Assembly: GCA_038230095.1 (NCBI GenBank) | Contig: JBBRNT010000001.1 | Span: 112,848-176,847, forward strand | Length of the DNA: 64,000 bases | Reading direction: 5' to 3' | Source: Candidatus Saccharimonadia bacterium | GTDB lineage: Bacteria; Patescibacteriota; Saccharimonadia; UBA4664; JBBRNT01 | In this document: positions 1,466 through 56,724 of the stretch, piece by piece | Position numbering within the stretch: position 1 is the first letter of the stretch | Layout: each line of letters begins with the position of its first letter | Notes under the pieces: model-generated | Database searches by the model: none | Seen by the model: the letters and a program-made list of their open reading frames with translations, nothing else | Told to the model about the DNA's origin: nothing | Translations under genes and position numbers: made by a program

Positions 1466-3244
1466 ATGAACGAAGTTGAGGAGATAAAAGGCCGGCTGGA
1501 GATTGCCGATGTGGTGGGTGGGTATGTGCAGCTGAAGCAAGCTGGGCGCAACCTAAAGGCACCGTGTCCATTCCACCAGGAGAAGACTGCTAGCTTCATG
1601 GTGAGCCCTGAAAAGGGCATATTCCATTGTTTTGGCTGTGGCCAGGGTGGGGACGTCTTCAAATTTGTCATGCTCATAGAGGGTCTAGACTTCCGGTCAG
1701 CACTGGAGCTACTGGCACGGCGGGCTGGGGTGGAGCTGAAGACCAAGAGTGGCCGACCTAAGGAGAATACCGATCGACTGTATGCAGCTATAGAGCTGGC
1801 GGCCAAGTACTTCCAGGCTACCCTGGTAAAGAACCCAAAGGCACTGGAGTATGTAACGAGAGACCGGCGGTTGGGGAAGCAGATTATTACCGACTTTATG
1901 ATTGGCTACGCACCCGAGTCGTGGGAGGCGCTCAGTGGATTCTTGCTGAAGAAAGGCTACACCCAAGACGAGCTCCTGCGGGCGGGGCTAGCGGGTCAGC
2001 GGCCGGAGCGCTCCACAGTATACGACCTATACCGCGGCCGGGTAATGTTTACCATCTCCGATGGGCAGGGGCGGCCGATTGGCTTTACCGGTCGGGTACT
2101 AGACGACTCGCTACCCAAGTACCTGAACACACCCCAGACAGTGCTCTACGACAAGTCCCGCGCCATCTTCGGCCTGCATCTAGCTAAGGAGGCCATTCGG
2201 ACCAAGGATGAGGTGGTGCTGGTAGAAGGCAATATGGACGTCATTGCGAGCCACCAGGCGGGGGTGCGGCAGGTGGTAGCGGCTAGCGGCACGGCGCTGA
2301 CGCTCGACCAGCTGAAGGCGCTGTCCTACCTGAGCAAGAACGTGAAGCTATGCTTTGACGCTGATCGCGCCGGGCTGGCCGCCACTGAGCGGGCCATACC
2401 GCTGGCGCAGAAGCTGGGGCTGAACTTATTCGTGGTGGAGATAGAGGGTGCCAAAGATCCCGATGAGCTTATTCTCCAAGACCCTGCCCTCTGGGAGAAG
2501 GCAATCAAGGATGCCAAGGAGATTCGGGAGTACTGGTACGAGCGGTCTCGGCGGGAGTTTAATATTGATGATAAGCCAAGCGGCATTGATAAGATCCAGT
2601 TTGTGAAACGCATGGCGACTATCCTGCGACTATACGATAATGCGACCCAGCAAGTCTTTGTCCAGCACATGGCAGGTGAGACTGGCATAGAGGAGCAGTC
2701 GTTCCTGGATGCCATTGAGAGCACAGACGAGACTATGCCGACTACCACGCGGACGTCCACGTCTGCGGCTACGGCGCGGATAGCGACCGCAACTGCGGCC
2801 ATAGTGCCCCCGCCTAAGCTAAGTGGTCGAGCCAATATTGAGGTATCGGTGCTTAGCCTGAACCTGGCGTTTCCCGAGGCACGGCTGAGCCTGGAGGACC
2901 TGAGGACTACGGATTTTGCCGATGAACGCCACCAGACTATATTTGATCGGATGATCAGCGAGGGGAGTAATGCCGCTCTGGACCAGCTGGTAAAGGTATT
3001 GCCAGAACAGGCGGATTATGTCAAAATCTTGGCATTGCAAGGCGAAGAAGAATATGCGGATACCGCCCCGGCTGACCGGAGCTTCGTGGCCTTTACCCTA
3101 GCCCGCCGATTGATTGAGCTGGCTAGTCACGACCAGAAAATGACACTAAGTAAACGCCTGAAGGCCGCTGAAGCAAGTGGCGACACTGCGCTGACCCACC
3201 AGATACTTGGTGAGTACCAGGCCATCATGGCAGAGGAGAGATAA
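1466..3244 (+). CDS. dnaG: DNA primase DnaG
   Basis: N-terminal zinc ribbon CPFHQEKTASF...HCFGCGQGGD and a Toprim segment (EGNMDV, DAD). It sits immediately upstream of rpoD in the classic MMS arrangement. Confidence 0.95.
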   Translation: MNEVEEIKGRLEIADVVGGYVQLKQAGRNLKAPCPFHQEKTASFMVSPEKGIFHCFGCGQGGDVFKFVMLIEGLDFRSALELLARRAGVELKTKSGRPKENTDRLYAAIELAAKYFQATLVKNPKALEYVTRDRRLGKQIITDFMIGYAPESWEALSGFLLKKGYTQDELLRAGLAGQRPERSTVYDLYRGRVMFTISDGQGRPIGFTGRVLDDSLPKYLNTPQTVLYDKSRAIFGLHLAKEAIRTKDEVVLVEGNMDVIASHQAGVRQVVAASGTALTLDQLKALSYLSKNVKLCFDADRAGLAATERAIPLAQKLGLNLFVVEIEGAKDPDELILQDPALWEKAIKDAKEIREYWYERSRREFNIDDKPSGIDKIQFVKRMATILRLYDNATQQVFVQHMAGETGIEEQSFLDAIESTDETMPTTTRTSTSAATARIATATAAIVPPPKLSGRANIEVSVLSLNLAFPEARLSLEDLRTTDFADERHQTIFDRMISEGSNAALDQLVKVLPEQADYVKILALQGEEEYADTAPADRSFVAFTLARRLIELASHDQKMTLSKRLKAAEASGDTALTHQILGEYQAIMAEER

Positions 3245-4360
3245 TTGCCTAAGAAAGCTGCAACACCGGAGTCGGAAGAGACCCCGGCTGGATCTGGGTA
3301 TTCCCCGGAGATTGAACGATTAATTGCCAAGGGCAAGGAGCAGGGCTTTGTCACCCAGCAGGAGATAGCCCAGGCTATTCCTGATGCGGAAGATAACCTT
3401 GAGGAGCTGGATGAGTTGTACGCGGCGTTGCTAGAAAACGGCGTAGAGCTGACAGACCAAAAAGAACGACTCATCTGGGACCAATCGGATGAAGAGCCCG
3501 TGGCCGAAGACAACGACGACTACATTAAGGACATTGCCGATGACTCGGTGCGCCTGTACCTACGTGAGATTGGTAAGATTCCGCTCCTTACCGGTGAGCA
3601 GGAAGTGACCCTGGCCAAGCGCATAGAAGCGGGAGACAAGGCAGCTAAGGACGCTATGGCCGAGGCCAATATGCGTCTCGTCGTATCGATTGCTAAGAAG
3701 TATATTGGCCGTGGGCTGGACCTACTTGACCTGATCCAAGAGGGTAATACTGGCTTGCTACGGGCCGTGGAGAAGTTCGACTACACAAAGGGCTACAAAT
3801 TTTCGACCTACGCTACGTGGTGGATTCGCCAGGCTATTACCCGAGCTATTGCCGACCAGGCTCGCACCATCCGCATCCCCGTCCATATGGTAGAGACCAT
3901 AAATAAGCTTATCCGTACTCAGCGCCGTCTGGTGCAGGAGCTGGGCCGCGAGCCTATGCCCGAGGAGATTGCTGCTGAGATGGAAATGGACGTCGATAAG
4001 GTGAACCACATTATTAAGATTAAGCAGGACATTGTATCGCTCGAAGCGCCGGTTGGTGAAGAGGACGACTCGCGTCTTGGTGACTTTATTGAAGACGAGG
4101 AAGCACAGACACCAGCCGAAGCGGCTACCTATCAACTGCTTAAGGAGCATGTAAACCAGGTACTGGCGCTCTTAACACCGCGTGAGCAGAAGATCCTCCG
4201 CATGCGGTTTGGTCTGGAAGATGGCCGCAGCCATACCCTGGAAGAAGTGGGACAAGAGTTCGGTGTTACTCGCGAGCGCATCCGTCAGATTGAGGCCAAG
4301 GCCCTGGCCAAGCTGCGCAAGCACCGCGAAAGCAAGAAGCTTCGCGACTACCTGAGCTAA
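3245..4360 (+). CDS. rpoD: RNA polymerase primary sigma factor (sigma-70/RpoD family)
   Basis: Region 2 motif [54 protein letters not shown]. Region 4 motif [24 protein letters not shown]. The TTG start at 3245 directly abuts the dnaG TAA stop. Confidence 0.95.
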
Positions 4361-4377
4361 GTTAGATGTCTAACCGG

Positions 4378-4400
4378 AAAGCCCCGAAAGGGGCTTTTTT
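4378..4400 (+). terminator. Rho-independent terminator after rpoD
   Basis: AAAGCCCC-GAAA-GGGGCTTT hairpin followed by a T6 run. Confidence 0.8.
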
Positions 4401-4413
4401 GGTGGGCGCATGA

Positions 4414-4442
4414 TTGACTCTGCGCAGAGCGAGTCGTATGGT
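4414..4442 (+). promoter_or_regulatory. candidate sigma70 promoter (TTGACT-17-TATGGT) heading an ORF-poor transcript
   Basis: Hexamers with exact 17-nt spacing. No credible CDS downstream until the hairpin at 4871-4904. Confidence 0.35.
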
Positions 4443-4870
4443 GGAGCTAGGCCAGGGGATCTGTACGCCACTGGTTTGCCGGAGCAGCGAGTCTACCATC
4501 TAATGCTCGCTGCAGTAGTACCGGATACGCCGAGAACAAATGTACTGAGTGTGTTTACACCCATGCCAACGCGGTGCCACGGGGAGACCCACGGACTAGA
4601 TCGAAGTATCTGGACTTGGCCGCAGGCAATTATGCGGGGTTCATCGTCCTCTCGGAAACGACGGAGAACGGTCGTAGCGGAAGCACCACGTACCGCTACG
4701 CAAAACGAAGTGTGGAAGCCCACCCCGTAGGGGTGGACGAACCTCTGGAGCGTGTTGCTGTGATTGCGCACAGTGACGTAGCAACGTCTTCACCGCCTAC
4801 GTGCAATAGATGTAGCAATCTGAAAAACCGGTAAGGGTGTCAGCAGCCGCGTAAACACCCAAATCCGAAA

Positions 4871-4904
4871 GGGCCGTCCGGGAGTTTCGACTCCTGGACG
4901 GCCC
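4871..4904. terminator. very stable 15-bp GC hairpin with UUCG tetraloop; candidate terminator or repeat palindrome
   Basis: GGGCCGTCCGGGAGT-TTCG-ACTCCTGGACGGCCC with one G-U pair. The trailing U-tract is weak (ATTTCC). The 5' arm is near-identical to the hairpin at 5555. Confidence 0.45.
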
Positions 4905-4927
4905 ATTTCCATCTCCGTAGCAAAATC

Positions 4928-4956
4928 TTGACAGTGATCTGGAATAGGACTATCGT
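4928..4956 (+). promoter_or_regulatory. candidate sigma70 promoter (TTGACA-17-TATCGT)
   Basis: Consensus -35 TTGACA, 17-nt spacer, -10 TATCGT. About 600 nt of ORF-poor sequence follows, ending at the terminator at 5555-5598. Confidence 0.4.
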
Positions 4957-5554
4957 ACTTCTCACGTCCGTCGTGGGCTTGCTCACGGCCGACGTGCACC
5001 GATTCCCAACATGCCCGTTCGTGAACGCGGCCACGGGACTCGGTCCAGGGCTCCGGCCCACTTGTCCACACTCGCAGTAGCGAGTCCGCCCTTGCGCCTA
5101 AGGAGTAACGTTGCTGCAACGCATTCGCGCTCCGGTTTCGTAGGTGATCGTCTCCTGATTGCCTACTCGACCACGCTTTCTCGAGCCTCCCTGTTAAGCC
5201 CAAACCAATAGGTGGCGGCCAGTACCGGATCAACGAATCCGGCTGACAGGACTAGGAGGATCAACAACTGGGGATGCATCCACTTGAATGGCAGGATGCC
5301 GCATACGTTCATCATTCACAAGCGATAGTGGCGAATGGTCTGCAACTGGTGCAGTAGACTTCGGTCACCAGTATGATCGTAGACCCTACCGGGTCATGAT
5401 CGGTCTTGGGCCCCCTGGGGGACTTTGCGCGGCATGCTGAGGGCATGTCGAAGCGGCAATTTGGGGAGCACTCGTGCAGCCCTGCCCAAGACCAAGCTCG
5501 TACGAAACAGTCCACCTCCGACCAAGAGGCGCCGGTTGACCGGACTGCTCGATG

Positions 5555-5598
5555 GGGCCGTTCGGGAGCTAGCGCTCCCGAACGGCCCTCTTTCTTTC
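5555..5598 (+). terminator. Rho-independent terminator (15-bp stem, TAGC loop, TCTTTCTTTC tail)
   Basis: GGGCCGTTCGGGAGC-TAGC-GCTCCCGAACGGCCC followed by a T-rich tract. Confidence 0.7.
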
Positions 5599-5699
5599 TA
5601 ACGCCAACAGATTAACAGCCAGATAGGTGGACGGTACAGTCTAGCCCTATTACAATCTGGTATCATCTGGCGTGCGCCCCCAAGTTCCCTACTAGTGAG

Positions 5700-6095
5700 A
5701 TGAGCACCGTGCTTACACTGACGTTTGCTTTGTACCCGCCTTATAATACCGACTGCCTCGAAAGGGGAATACGCGACGCTATTGCCCAGGTCGTGACACA
5801 GTACTACTCCTGGCCAGCAGGCCGACTGACTCTGAGCGTACCCGTCATGAGTGATCTCAGCGCCACACCCTACCCATTCCAGTTGACGCTGGAGCTGCCC
5901 ATGGACTGCTGGCCAGAGACCGATACCAGCGATCTGGCACGTGACGTAGCTATAAAGTCCGTGGCAGCTATCTATCTGCAGCACGCGGGTAATTTGGCTG
6001 TAGCACTTGAGCCAGTAGTGCCATACCGGCTGCCTTGGCGCCTGATCGTAGTTGGCGAAGGCATAGGGGAGTGGTACAGCGACGCCCATTCCTAG
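5700..6095 (+). CDS. hypothetical protein
   Basis: Protein-like composition, and an intrinsic terminator follows. The overlapping minus-strand ORF 5598-6152 is Cys/Trp/His-rich and looks non-coding. Confidence 0.5.
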   Translation: MSTVLTLTFALYPPYNTDCLERGIRDAIAQVVTQYYSWPAGRLTLSVPVMSDLSATPYPFQLTLELPMDCWPETDTSDLARDVAIKSVAAIYLQHAGNLAVALEPVVPYRLPWRLIVVGEGIGEWYSDAHS

Positions 6096-6105
6096 CCCCG
6101 TCCCT

Positions 6106-6142
6106 GGCCCCGCACTCGTGCGGGGCCTATTATTTTGCTTTT
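6106..6142 (+). terminator. Rho-independent terminator
   Basis: GGCCCCGCAC-TCG-GTGCGGGGCC then TATTATTTTGCTTTT. Confidence 0.75.
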
Positions 6143-6450
6143 CCAAGGCCATAATATGCTAAAAAGGTTGTTTCACACTGCTACGACGCGTATGATCAGG
6201 GGGATTGTCCATCTAGTCAAAGTAGGTGATCACTCTGATCAGCCGAGTTCTAGAGTTTCCGGCTTCTAAACAGTTCGCACTCTGCAACAGTTATGGCAAT
6301 AAAGCCGGTTGCTCACATCCAATCCACCTAGAGAGTAGGCAAAGCGTCTGCTCCAACGAATCTCTCAGGAGGCATGATGTGGCAATCTAGTCCAAGTATT
6401 TGCTCGATTGATGTTTCTATTGCAACCAGTGGCAAGGGGAGGGGATAGCA

Positions 6451-6717
6451 ATGAGACAACCACGACCGGCCACACGTATTCGGGCCTACCTGCTGGGTAA
6501 GGACCGCTTTCCGGAAGAGCGTACGCTCGAACACATTCAAAAAGCTTGCGCTGGCGACGACTCGATCGAAGCCCTTCAAGTTGAGCTCGATGCACTGGTG
6601 GCGACGGGGCATGTGGTGCGGAGCGGGTTGCTGTACCAGTTGTCCGACGATGAGCGGCATCAGATCATTGAAGACTTCCGAGTAGCCTTGCGCATGCGAG
6701 GGCGTGTCCGCATGTAA
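6451..6717 (+). CDS. small hypothetical protein (88 aa)
   Basis: Strong SD AGGGGAGGGG lies 6 nt before the ATG. Coding-like composition. Confidence 0.5.
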   Translation: MRQPRPATRIRAYLLGKDRFPEERTLEHIQKACAGDDSIEALQVELDALVATGHVVRSGLLYQLSDDERHQIIEDFRVALRMRGRVRM

Positions 6718-6881
6718 TCGTGGGCTCCGTCTGGACCAGGAGTCTAGACGGAGCCCTTCTGCGTCTTAGTCCTTGCGCTGGTCGCACAGGGCTGCTGCTG
6801 CGCCGTCCCTCTAGTTCACCACTCGTCCCCGGGGGCTTTGCTCCTGGGGACTTCTTGTTTGTATCGGGGTATAATTGGCGT

Positions 6882-9605
6882 ATGAGCAAAAAACCCACCC
6901 TCGTTCTCGTTGACGGTAGCGCGGTATTTCACCGAGGCTATCACGCCATACCGCCACTTTCGAATAAGGATGGCGTGCCTACCAATGCTACCTACGGCTT
7001 TACTACTATTCTGCTTAAGGTCATTGCCGAGCTGAAGCCGACCTACATGGTAATGGCCTGGGACATGAAGGGGCCAACGTTCCGGCACGAGATGTACCCC
7101 GAGTATAAGGGAACGCGGGTAAAGCAGCCGGACGATCTGTATGAACAAATGCCGTGGGCCAGGAAGGTGACGGAGGCATTGGGCATACCCTGGGTGGAGT
7201 TAGCACGCTATGAGGCAGACGACATTATTGGCACCTTTGTGAAACAGTCTGGCGACCTTGATACCATTATTGTGACCGGTGATAAGGATGAGTTCCAGCT
7301 AATCAATGACACTACACGGGTCTACACCATGCAGCGTGGGTTCACTGACACCACCATCTATGACCTGGCCAAAATGCAGGAGCGCTACGGCTTAACGCCC
7401 GGGCAGTTCTTGGACGCTAAGGCGCTAATGGGCGACTCCAGCGATAACATTCCTGGCGTCCCCGGCGTGGGCGAGAAGACGGCTATGGCACTGATCCAGA
7501 ACTATGGCACGCTGGATGCTGTGTATGACAATCTTGAAAAAATACCAGGCAAACTCGGAGAACGGCTGCGAGATAATAAGGAACTGGCCTACCATAGCCA
7601 CGAGCTATCGCGAATTGTGCAGGATGCGCCGGTCAAGCTAGATCTAGCCGCAGCGGAGCTGGGCCAATACAACCGCACGGAGATCCACGATCTATTTCGC
7701 GAGCTCGGCTTTAAAGGGCTTCTCAGCAAGCTCCCGCCGGAAATGGTAGAGACTGTACCAAGCCTGTTTGATCTAGGTGAACCACAGAAGAAGGACCGGG
7801 CGCATCTGAAGTCGGTGAAGTACCATAGCGTAACCACTGAGAAGGATCTAGCTGAGCTCGTGGCCACACTGGAAAAGACCAAGATCTTTGCTATGGACAC
7901 GGAGACTACTGGGCTAGACGTACTGACGGCCGATCTAGTAGGGTTATCATTCTCTGTAAAGCCTGCTGAGGCCTATTATGTGCCGGTAGGGCACCAGGCG
8001 GGTAAGCAGCTGGCTAAGGATGTGGTACTAGGGGCATTGCGGCCAGCATTGACGAATCCGGCTATAGGTAAGGTGGGGCACAATATTAAATACGATTACC
8101 AAATTCTCCACGAGGCTGGTGTGGTGGTGGCGGGGATTGCCTGGGACACTATGATTGCCGCGTTCTTGCTAAACCCCACTGGCCGCACTCAGTCGCTGGA
8201 CGATCTGGCCTTCTCCGAGCTGGGTATAGACATGATCCCAATTACTGAGCTGATTGGTGCAGGTAAGAGCCAGGCTACTTTTGATACTACTGACATCGCC
8301 GAGGCTACTACTTATGCTTGTGAGGACGCCGACATGAGCTGGCGTATCTATGAGAAGCAGGTCGCCGAGATGGGCCATAAGGACGCGGTGGGCGTAGCCA
8401 AGCTGGCTGCAGCTACCGAGTGGCCGCTCATACCCATACTGGCAGACATGGAGCTGGCTGGTATAGAGCTGGACTCCAAGTTCCTGCACGACTTCAATAA
8501 GGTAATCTCGGCCAAGATTCTGGGTCTGGAAGAGGACATTTATAAGGCCGCGGAGCAGCACTTCAACATTGGCTCGCCGTCGCAGCTGGCCGAGATCCTC
8601 TATAACAAGCTAGCGCTGTCGGCAGTGGGCATAAAGAAGGGCAAGACCGGGCTTTCTACAGCTGCCGATCAGCTGGAGAAAATGCGTGGGATGCACCCTA
8701 TCATTGAACTTATTCTCGAGTACCGCGAGCTAATGAAGCTGAAGAATACCTACATAGACACCCTGCCACAGCTAGTAGCGGCCGACGGGCGCGTGCACAC
8801 CAGCTACAGCCAGACAATTGCGGCCACGGGGCGACTTAGCTCTAATAGCCCCAATCTACAGAACATACCAGTGCGCACTGATCTGGGTCGGGAAATCCGT
8901 AAGGCCTTTGTGGCGCCGAAGGGCCGTGTGCTGGTGGGTGCAGACTACTCGCAGATTGAGCTGCGCGTAGCAGCAGCGCTGGCCAAAGACGAGGCTATGA
9001 TCCAGACCTTTCGTGATGGTATAGATCTGCACCAGCAGACGGCTGCTGAGCTGTATACCGTACCGCTAGAGACTGTCACTAAGCAGCAACGCTATAATGC
9101 CAAGACTATTAACTTCGGTGTAATGTACGGCATGAGCGCTCATGGCCTATCTGTCGCCACAGGTATGACGCGTGAGGAGTCGGCTGGGTTTATCCAGCGC
9201 TACTTCGAGGTGCGACCCAAACTGAAGGCCTACATTGAAGAGACGAAGCTATTTGCCCGCGAGCATGAGTACACCGAGACACTATTTGGTCGCCGTCGAC
9301 CCTGCCCGGAGATTAACTCAAACAACCAGATTCTGGTAAACGCGGCCGAGCGCATGGCGGTAAATGTGCCTATTCAGGGCACGGCAGCGGACATTATTAA
9401 GCTGGCCATGATTGCCCTAGTGCCACGGCTGGATGGTGATGCTAGGCTACTACTCCAGATACATGATGAACTCATCATTGAGACTGACGCGAGCAAGGGC
9501 GAGGCAGTAGCGGCACTGATCCGCGATGTGATGACCAATGTATATGACCTGGGCGTGCCGCTGGCGGTGGATACGGAGATTGGGACCAACTGGGGCGAGC
9601 TGTGA
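6882..9605 (+). CDS. polA: DNA polymerase I (5'-3' exonuclease, 3'-5' exonuclease and polymerase domains)
   Basis: N-terminus MSKKPTLVLVDGSAVFHRGYHA is a typical 5' nuclease start. 3'-5' exonuclease motif FAMDTETTGLD. Polymerase motifs RRPCPEINSN, DYSQIELR and QIHDELI. TATAAT at 6870-6875 lies 6 nt before the ATG. Confidence 0.93.
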   Translation: MSKKPTLVLVDGSAVFHRGYHAIPPLSNKDGVPTNATYGFTTILLKVIAELKPTYMVMAWDMKGPTFRHEMYPEYKGTRVKQPDDLYEQMPWARKVTEALGIPWVELARYEADDIIGTFVKQSGDLDTIIVTGDKDEFQLINDTTRVYTMQRGFTDTTIYDLAKMQERYGLTPGQFLDAKALMGDSSDNIPGVPGVGEKTAMALIQNYGTLDAVYDNLEKIPGKLGERLRDNKELAYHSHELSRIVQDAPVKLDLAAAELGQYNRTEIHDLFRELGFKGLLSKLPPEMVETVPSLFDLGEPQKKDRAHLKSVKYHSVTTEKDLAELVATLEKTKIFAMDTETTGLDVLTADLVGLSFSVKPAEAYYVPVGHQAGKQLAKDVVLGALRPALTNPAIGKVGHNIKYDYQILHEAGVVVAGIAWDTMIAAFLLNPTGRTQSLDDLAFSELGIDMIPITELIGAGKSQATFDTTDIAEATTYACEDADMSWRIYEKQVAEMGHKDAVGVAKLAAATEWPLIPILADMELAGIELDSKFLHDFNKVISAKILGLEEDIYKAAEQHFNIGSPSQLAEILYNKLALSAVGIKKGKTGLSTAADQLEKMRGMHPIIELILEYRELMKLKNTYIDTLPQLVAADGRVHTSYSQTIAATGRLSSNSPNLQNIPVRTDLGREIRKAFVAPKGRVLVGADYSQIELRVAAALAKDEAMIQTFRDGIDLHQQTAAELYTVPLETVTKQQRYNAKTINFGVMYGMSAHGLSVATGMTREESAGFIQRYFEVRPKLKAYIEETKLFAREHEYTETLFGRRRPCPEINSNNQILVNAAERMAVNVPIQGTAADIIKLAMIALVPRLDGDARLLLQIHDELIIETDASKGEAVAALIRDVMTNVYDLGVPLAVDTEIGTNWGEL

Positions 9606-56661: not shown

Positions 56662-56673
56662 CTAAGACAGCTT

Positions 56674-56701
56674 AAAAAAAGACCCGTAAGGGTCTTTTTT
56701 T
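56674..56701 (+). terminator. Rho-independent terminator after major pilin gene
   Basis: A7-GACCC-GTAA-GGGTC-T7 perfect hairpin. Confidence 0.85.
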
Positions 56702-56724
56702 ATTGGCTCTGGTATAATCTGGTT

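Follow-up and report, generated by a model that had tools for sequence, protein, structure and literature searches.

The window, by which we mean the whole 64-kb stretch of DNA that was analysed, belongs to a genome of Saccharibacteria (TM7, candidate phyla radiation, CPR) with a GC content of about 55%, its RpoD finding its best genome matches among Saccharibacteria MAGs, and carries in this order a gene for a PHP-domain protein, dnaG (1466-3244), rpoD (3245-4360), an intergenic gap, polA and a NUDIX gene, with rpoD through polA all on the + strand. The listed polA ORF extends too far upstream, to a GTG at 6720. The 5'-3' exonuclease domain of its product begins at residue 60, and translation most likely starts from the ATG at 6882, which has a TATAAT box upstream. 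The extension (6720-6881) holds two hairpins, one at 6722-6756 and a terminator-like one at 6825-6851. Because the polA start is placed at 6882, the gap between rpoD and polA spans 4361-6881, and its contents are, in order, the rpoD terminator, two promoter-to-hairpin units referred to here as unit 1 and unit 2, the small reading frame ORF131, about 320 nt of non-coding DNA, a second small frame, ORF88, and the two hairpins (Table 1). Genomes of CPR bacteria, Saccharibacteria among them, are small and compact. An earlier reading of this DNA, made from the letters alone (the sequence-only reading), had remarked that non-coding DNA of such length is unusual in so tightly packed a window; when ORFs of at least 150 aa are taken as genes, several of them Pfam-confirmed, the longest stretch of the 64 kb without a credible gene is indeed the one at 4361-5699.

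Table 1. Features of the gap between rpoD and polA, in positions of the window
Feature	Position	Strand	Remarks
rpoD intrinsic terminator, AAAGCCCCGAAAGGGGC + T-run	4378-4402	+	Left edge of the variable island; kept in L081 and L163, which diverge after it
ORF of 106 aa	4410-4730	+	
Unit 1, sigma-70-type promoter-like site, TTGACT-17-TATGGT	4414-4442	+	9/12 consensus matches; 11 nt after the rpoD terminator
Unit 1, putative transcript body	4449-4867	+	Start placed about 7 nt past the -10 hexamer
Unit 1, perfect 8-bp hairpin, GCAGCGAG-N14-CTCGCTGC	4484-4513	+	Absent from the list of the sequence-only reading
ORF of 92 aa	4493-4771	-	
Unit 1, perfect 8-bp hairpin, CGTAGCGG-N12-CCGCTACG	4673-4700	+	
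Unit 1, perfect 7-bp hairpin, CCACCCC-GTA-GGGGTGG	4720-4736	+	
ORF of 147 aa	4790-5233	-	
Unit 1, terminal hairpin, GGGCCGTCCGGGAGT-TTCG-ACTCCTGGACGGCCC	4868-4907 (stem 4871-4904)	+	15 GC-rich pairs, UUCG loop, AAA and AUUU flanks
Unit 2, promoter-like site, TTGACA-17-TATCGT	4928-4956	+	10/12 consensus matches; 21 nt past the end of the unit 1 hairpin (4907)
Unit 2, terminal hairpin and terminator, GGGCCGTTCGGGAGC-TAGC-GCTCCCGAACGGCCC	5554-5589 (stem 5555-5588)	+	16 pairs, loop UAGC, T-rich tail CTTTCTTTCT
ORF131	5700-6095	+	Terminator at 6106-6127
ORF88	6451-6717	+	

The anatomy of unit 1 is that of a putative stand-alone transcription unit. The promoter directly after the rpoD terminator, the perfect internal hairpins and the closing GC stem with its UUCG tetraloop, all described in the sequence-only reading, were recovered where it had placed them, with a third internal hairpin in addition to the two it had listed and with one pair of the terminal stem turning out to be a G.T wobble. 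The promoter-like site has, as a matter of sequence, the -35 and -10 hexamers of a sigma-70 promoter within the usual 16-18 nt spacing, and such sites are only modestly enriched overall (8 sites in 5 kb, where 3.4±1.9 would be expected). The single wobble of the terminal stem, G4880.T4895, pairs on the + strand only, which favours the + strand for unit 1. The tail of this hairpin is AUUUCCAUCUCC, a weak U-tract (AUUUCC), and the terminator scan does not call the hairpin because its T-run is poor; we regard it as a putative terminator or 3'-end stabiliser.

No coding signal was found in unit 1. Codon usage was scored by log-odds with 25 long genes from the window as training set; real 300-nt gene chunks score 0.38±0.17, and wrong frames score -0.49±0.27. 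Across the six frames of 4400-5600 the score never exceeds 0.16 per 150-nt window, in keeping with the opinion of the sequence-only reading that the ORFs here are short or junk-like; the ORFs within the region score from -0.35 to 0.10, and the three of 106, 92 and 147 aa from -0.06 to -0.08. No plausible Shine-Dalgarno-led small ORF is present on the + strand of unit 1. The ORFs of at least 66 aa in the region had no Pfam match, and a six-frame translation of 4403-5610, queried as a concatenation of all stop-free segments that reach 30 aa, matched none of 5.8 billion proteins at E<=10. When ORFs from the same gap of ten relatives were compared with units 1 and 2 by tblastn, noise was all that came back. 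When the longest frame free of stops (4451-4831) was compared exhaustively by phmmer with 1.84 billion cluster representatives, three matches came back, with E values from 6e-8 to 3e-4. Two of them, P0125 (about 31% identity over 42 aa) and P0127, are exact tandem-repeat proteins, and their scores arise because weak per-repeat scores add up over the repeats; we treated both as artefacts, and the sequence of P0127 itself resembles a junk translation. This verdict covers P0125 and P0127 only; the remaining match, P0126, has an E value of 2e-4 over one 41-residue stretch. The translated searches, which the sequence-only reading had named as the way to expose a pseudogene remnant, thus yielded no credible protein match by Pfam, six-frame search or phmmer.

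Searches against known RNA families were equally unproductive. With Rfam 15 (4227 families) nothing in the whole window reached a gathering score, and at E<=10 with permissive filters, on both strands of 4300-5750, there were only hairpin- or terminator-like chance matches such as ftsZ-DE (27 bits, where the gathering score is 72) and Scr6925. ARAGORN found no tRNA or tmRNA gene in the window. Individual candidates were rejected on these grounds: tmRNA (RF00023 and relatives), for which both ARAGORN and Rfam, at gathering score and at E<=10, were negative; RNase P RNA (RF00010/RF00011), whose models were negative at both levels on both strands; SRP RNA (RF00169/RF01854) and 6S RNA (RF00013), negative in Rfam, the region being absent moreover from relatives at 76-90% RpoD identity; and OLE, GOLLD, ROOL, HEARO, raiA and the group I and II introns, for which no Rfam match went beyond the terminator-like chance ones. 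Since Rfam, ARAGORN, Pfam and translated searches gave nothing credible, we conclude that unit 1 is not a tmRNA, RNase P, SRP or 6S RNA, nor one of the known large ncRNAs, nor a recognisable pseudogene. The first four had failed to match by eye in the sequence-only reading, and the model searches agree.

The evidence for RNA structure is mixed. Unit 1 is enriched in perfect hairpins with stems of 7 bp or more: it has 3, whereas dinucleotide shuffles lead one to expect 0.31 (P=0.004), and of 136 background tiles of the same length in the window a single one reaches that number. The minimum free energy (MFE) of the whole unit (4448-4915) has a z score of -4.4 (-3.7 in a replicate; -3.6 on the minus strand), to be compared with -0.52±1.21 and a minimum of -2.84 for 30 equally long segments of the window. 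When the terminal hairpin is left out (4449-4866), z is -1.5 on both strands, inside the window background. The low folding energy of unit 1 therefore comes almost entirely from its terminal hairpin, and what the analysis shows is a strong 3' hairpin and a few short perfect stem-loops rather than a compact fold. Of the earlier description as a structured ncRNA, the enrichment of hairpins stands, but the body folds no better than ordinary background, and the structured reading is weakly supported.

Unit 2 (4928-5589, about 630 nt) repeats the promoter-to-terminator layout of unit 1. The score of its promoter-like site is the joint best in 3000-8000, tied with a site at 5718-5747; coding signal, protein match and Rfam match are all absent from unit 2, whose body has an MFE z score of -2.2 (+ strand) or -0.5 (- strand). 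In their bodies the two units are dissimilar; the terminal hairpins alone are related. The 14-mer GGGCCGTYCGGGAG is found in the window only at these two hairpins, one further match with 2 mismatches lying in coding-like sequence outside any hairpin and being attributable to chance. From unit 1 to unit 2 the stems differ by two compensatory swaps that preserve pairing (at arm position 8, C-G to T-A; at position 15, T-A to C-G) and by a G.T pair that has become G-C. The unit 2 hairpin is clearly related to that of unit 1, as a paralogue. The only covariation seen is that between these two paralogous hairpins (2 compensatory pairs, n=2), and covariation support for the unit 1 body is absent because homologues of the body were not found. 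Both stems are about twice as long as those of the other terminators of the window (6-9 bp), and no other short-loop GC-rich hairpin on record for the 64 kb is as strong as these two (among the listed pairs, short loops occur only in the unit 2 hairpin and in an A/T-rich 13-nt one at 56673-56702, the unit 1 hairpin being documented separately).

The synteny of dnaG, rpoD, the gap, polA and the NUDIX gene is kept in Saccharibacteria, and the content of the gap is not. In the relatives compared (L001, L002, L003, L010, L031, L036 and L083-L086) the gap is between 451 and 4576 nt long with unrelated content; that of L001 holds a small minus-strand ORF, and that of L083, whose RpoD is 90% identical, three different hypothetical ORFs. 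The rpoD-polA junction thus appears, from these comparisons, to be a variable hotspot in Saccharibacteria. Neither blastn nor nhmmer against 166 fetched loci detected anything similar to 4403-5610 past the rpoD terminator, and the region is absent even from L164-L166, loci in this set with RpoD C-termini 88-91% identical. Phage and plasmid collections searched in distant mode and exact-pattern scans of viral contigs gave no match to unit 1 or unit 2, and no homologue of the unit 1 body turned up in any collection searched. Exact-protein look-ups of the rpoD, polA, ORF131 and ORF88 products led to a single 2.1-kb contig, and RpoD cluster members and C-terminal fragments led only to contigs ending about 100 nt past rpoD or to distant relatives without the region.

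The really close relatives consist of three short contigs. L081 encodes an identical RpoD protein (87% nucleotide identity) and L163 one with 98% amino acid identity (84% nucleotide identity); these two contigs stop 104-125 nt past rpoD, 20-40 nt into unit 1. The third, L162, begins inside the unit 2 terminator and carries ORF131 (73% amino acid identity), ORF88 (58%), the hairpin corresponding to 6722-6756 and polA. At four-fold degenerate sites of rpoD, L081 and L163 are 51% and 43% identical to the window, so synonymous sites are essentially saturated. L163 is nevertheless identical to the window at 38 of 50 positions (76%) over the unit 1 promoter and the first 20 or so transcribed nucleotides, with an alignment score of 22 against 7.4±1.2 for shuffles (P<0.0005), and its promoter counterpart reads TTGACG-17-TATTGT. 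Set against saturated synonymous sites, this identity would imply purifying selection, and the promoter and 5' end of unit 1 look selected in this one sister lineage. L081 shows no significant similarity to the window past the rpoD terminator, and unit 1 appears, on this comparison, not to be universal even among the closest relatives. The sequence-only reading had held that absence from close relatives would tell against an RNA gene; the region is in fact absent from all but the very closest and undetected in L081, but L163 retains its promoter and 5' end.

The end of L081 (about 4485), the end of L163 (about 4465) and the start of L162 (about 5586) all fall at the edges of the block formed by units 1 and 2. 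These breaks could be due to chance, the contigs being about 2 kb long, to a drop in coverage at the GC hairpins, to strain hypervariability or to a multi-copy sequence.

Downstream of the two units, further promoter-like sites lie at 5612-5656, upstream of ORF131. The frames of ORF131 (131 aa) and ORF88 (88 aa) are kept open in L162, and both are otherwise ORFans: a search of 5.8 billion proteins with ORF131 as query gave 2 matches, nothing convincing emerged for either frame from Pfam, NCBIfam, PHROGs or PADLOC (ORF88 matches only a phrog of unknown function, E 0.26), and no relatives were found among viral contigs. AlphaFold models of the two had pLDDT below 50 and were set aside. ORF88 has a marginal tblastn match to a 149-aa ORF of L083 (8739-9188; E 2e-4, 27% identity over 37 aa), the only result below 1e-3 in the gap-ORF comparison with ten relatives, and one that lies outside units 1 and 2. 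Between the two frames, about 215 nt of non-coding DNA (6187-6400) are about 98% identical to L162 (about 575-790), and the flanking ORF131 and ORF88 are about 75-77% identical at the nucleotide level; this comparison involves two sequences only, and the saturation at rpoD was measured against L081 and L163, not L162. The segment holds three TGATCA palindromes, has no match in Rfam and is predicted to be only modestly structured (MFE z scores of -1.4 to -2.1). It could be an RNA or DNA element under strong constraint, or it could have been exchanged recently.

The reading of unit 1 that we tentatively favour, giving it a little less than an even chance, is a lineage-restricted, independently transcribed ncRNA gene of about 455-460 nt in a fast-turnover island between rpoD and polA. 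Speaking for such a gene are the promoter placed after a terminator, the conservation in L163, the lack of coding or protein signal, the compensatory swaps, the enrichment of hairpins and the compactness of the genome; on the other side stand the ordinary z score of the body, the lack of any body homologue, the dissimilarity of L081, the unrelated content of the gap elsewhere and the poor U-tract. The main rival is decaying, non-functional DNA, that is, cargo of a mobile element or foreign genes eroding in a recombination or insertion hotspot, with the promoter and hairpins as relics or products of chance. We consider this a substantial possibility. The variation of the gap among Saccharibacteria (451 to 4576 nt, with unrelated content), the immediate divergence of L081 after the terminator, two bodies that resemble neither each other nor anything else, a unit 1 body of ordinary overall folding energy and the ORFan neighbours ORF131 and ORF88 all fit it. 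Decay is harder to reconcile with a promoter and 5' end conserved in L163 far above the neutral level, with terminal hairpins that are both preserved through compensatory changes, and with sequence that shows no residual codon bias or protein similarity, even to the genes that relatives carry in the same gap; nor would 1.3 kb of junk be expected to persist, given that CPR genomes are, as is generally known, small and compact.

The remaining alternatives carry much less weight. Unit 1 might be part of a longer mRNA, either as 3' UTR or readthrough of rpoD or as a long leader of an ORF131 operon. The common + strand orientation from rpoD through polA would allow this, and readthrough from unit 1 into unit 2 is plausible because the U-tract of the unit 1 hairpin is poor; however, rpoD has a good terminator of its own that is kept in relatives, each unit has its own promoter-like site, unit 2 closes in a strong terminator whose tail is T-rich (5554-5589), and further promoter-like sites precede ORF131 at 5612-5656, which makes a longer mRNA quite unlikely. 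A missed protein-coding gene, small ORF or recent pseudogene is less likely again: frames of 106, 92 and 147 aa do exist and the frame at 4451-4831 drew three phmmer matches, but the codon scores of these frames lie far below those of real genes, Pfam and the six-frame search were empty, the two phmmer matches that were inspected are repeat or junk proteins and the + strand lacks a Shine-Dalgarno-led ORF. Least credible of all, and in our view very improbable, is that unit 1 is one of the housekeeping RNAs (tmRNA, RNase P, SRP or 6S RNA), or else a large ncRNA or intron of a known family, that has diverged beyond the reach of the models. A length of about 460 nt is within the size range of tmRNA and RNase P RNA, and RNAs of CPR bacteria can be divergent; yet Rfam is negative even at E<=10, as is ARAGORN, and a housekeeping RNA would be expected to be conserved across the phylum, whereas L083 and other close relatives lack the region.

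If unit 1 is an ncRNA gene, the housekeeping sigma-70 holoenzyme would initiate from the promoter-like site at about 4449, and the 15-bp GC hairpin with its UUCG loop would mark the point at which transcription ends or to which the transcript is trimmed back, acting as a (leaky) terminator and as a shield against 3' exonucleases. The body of the transcript would be a chain of short perfect stem-loops with loosely structured sequence between them. Because such a chain has no single compact fold, a regulatory or protein-binding accessory RNA fits better than a ribozyme-like housekeeping RNA. Unit 1 would then be one of two tandem units with paralogous 3' hairpins. A more far-reaching proposal, which we put forward as speculation and think improbable, is that the whole island is an RNA-centred module of an undescribed system, consisting of two tandem, independently transcribed large ncRNAs (of about 460 and about 630 nt) that have the 3' hairpin in common, the almost invariant non-coding element of about 215 nt (6187-6400) and two small ORFan proteins, with a role, for example, in defence or in the host interaction of an episymbiotic CPR bacterium.

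A full-text literature search found no paper on non-coding RNAs of CPR bacteria or Saccharibacteria. A real accessory RNA of 460 nt with a sibling of 630 nt would enlarge this sparse picture and would point to the junction of rpoD and polA as a hotspot of accessory cargo. At present unit 1 is of value as a target for transcriptomics, an orphan candidate rather than a finding.

Among known systems, several invite comparison. The terminal hairpins resemble intrinsic terminators and repeated extragenic palindromic hairpins in that GC stems of 15-16 bp with tetraloops form a two-copy family at the unit ends; the unit 2 copy has the T-rich tail of an intrinsic terminator, whereas that of unit 1 has a poor U-tract, and repeated extragenic palindromes differ in that only two copies occur here in 64 kb. 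With OLE, GOLLD, ROOL, HEARO and raiA, unit 1 shares its size class (hundreds of nucleotides) and intergenic position, and large Rfam ncRNAs are sometimes found in mobile or variable regions, as unit 1 is; these families are, however, defined by broad conservation and covariation, neither of which unit 1 displays, and its body is not unusually stable. Unit 1 also resembles the orphan sRNA and ncRNA genes encoded in bacterial islands, a recognised class of stand-alone promoter-to-terminator units in accessory regions. Unit 1 differs from typical trans-acting sRNAs in being several times longer, at about 460 nt, and in lacking an Hfq-type or U-rich 3' tail; with the island-encoded genes it has in common a sigma-70-type promoter (a promoter-like site here), no ORF, a strong 3' hairpin, a location in a variable, lineage-specific island and a narrow phylogenetic distribution, and, if real, it would join the stand-alone ncRNA genes of bacterial accessory islands as a new orphan.
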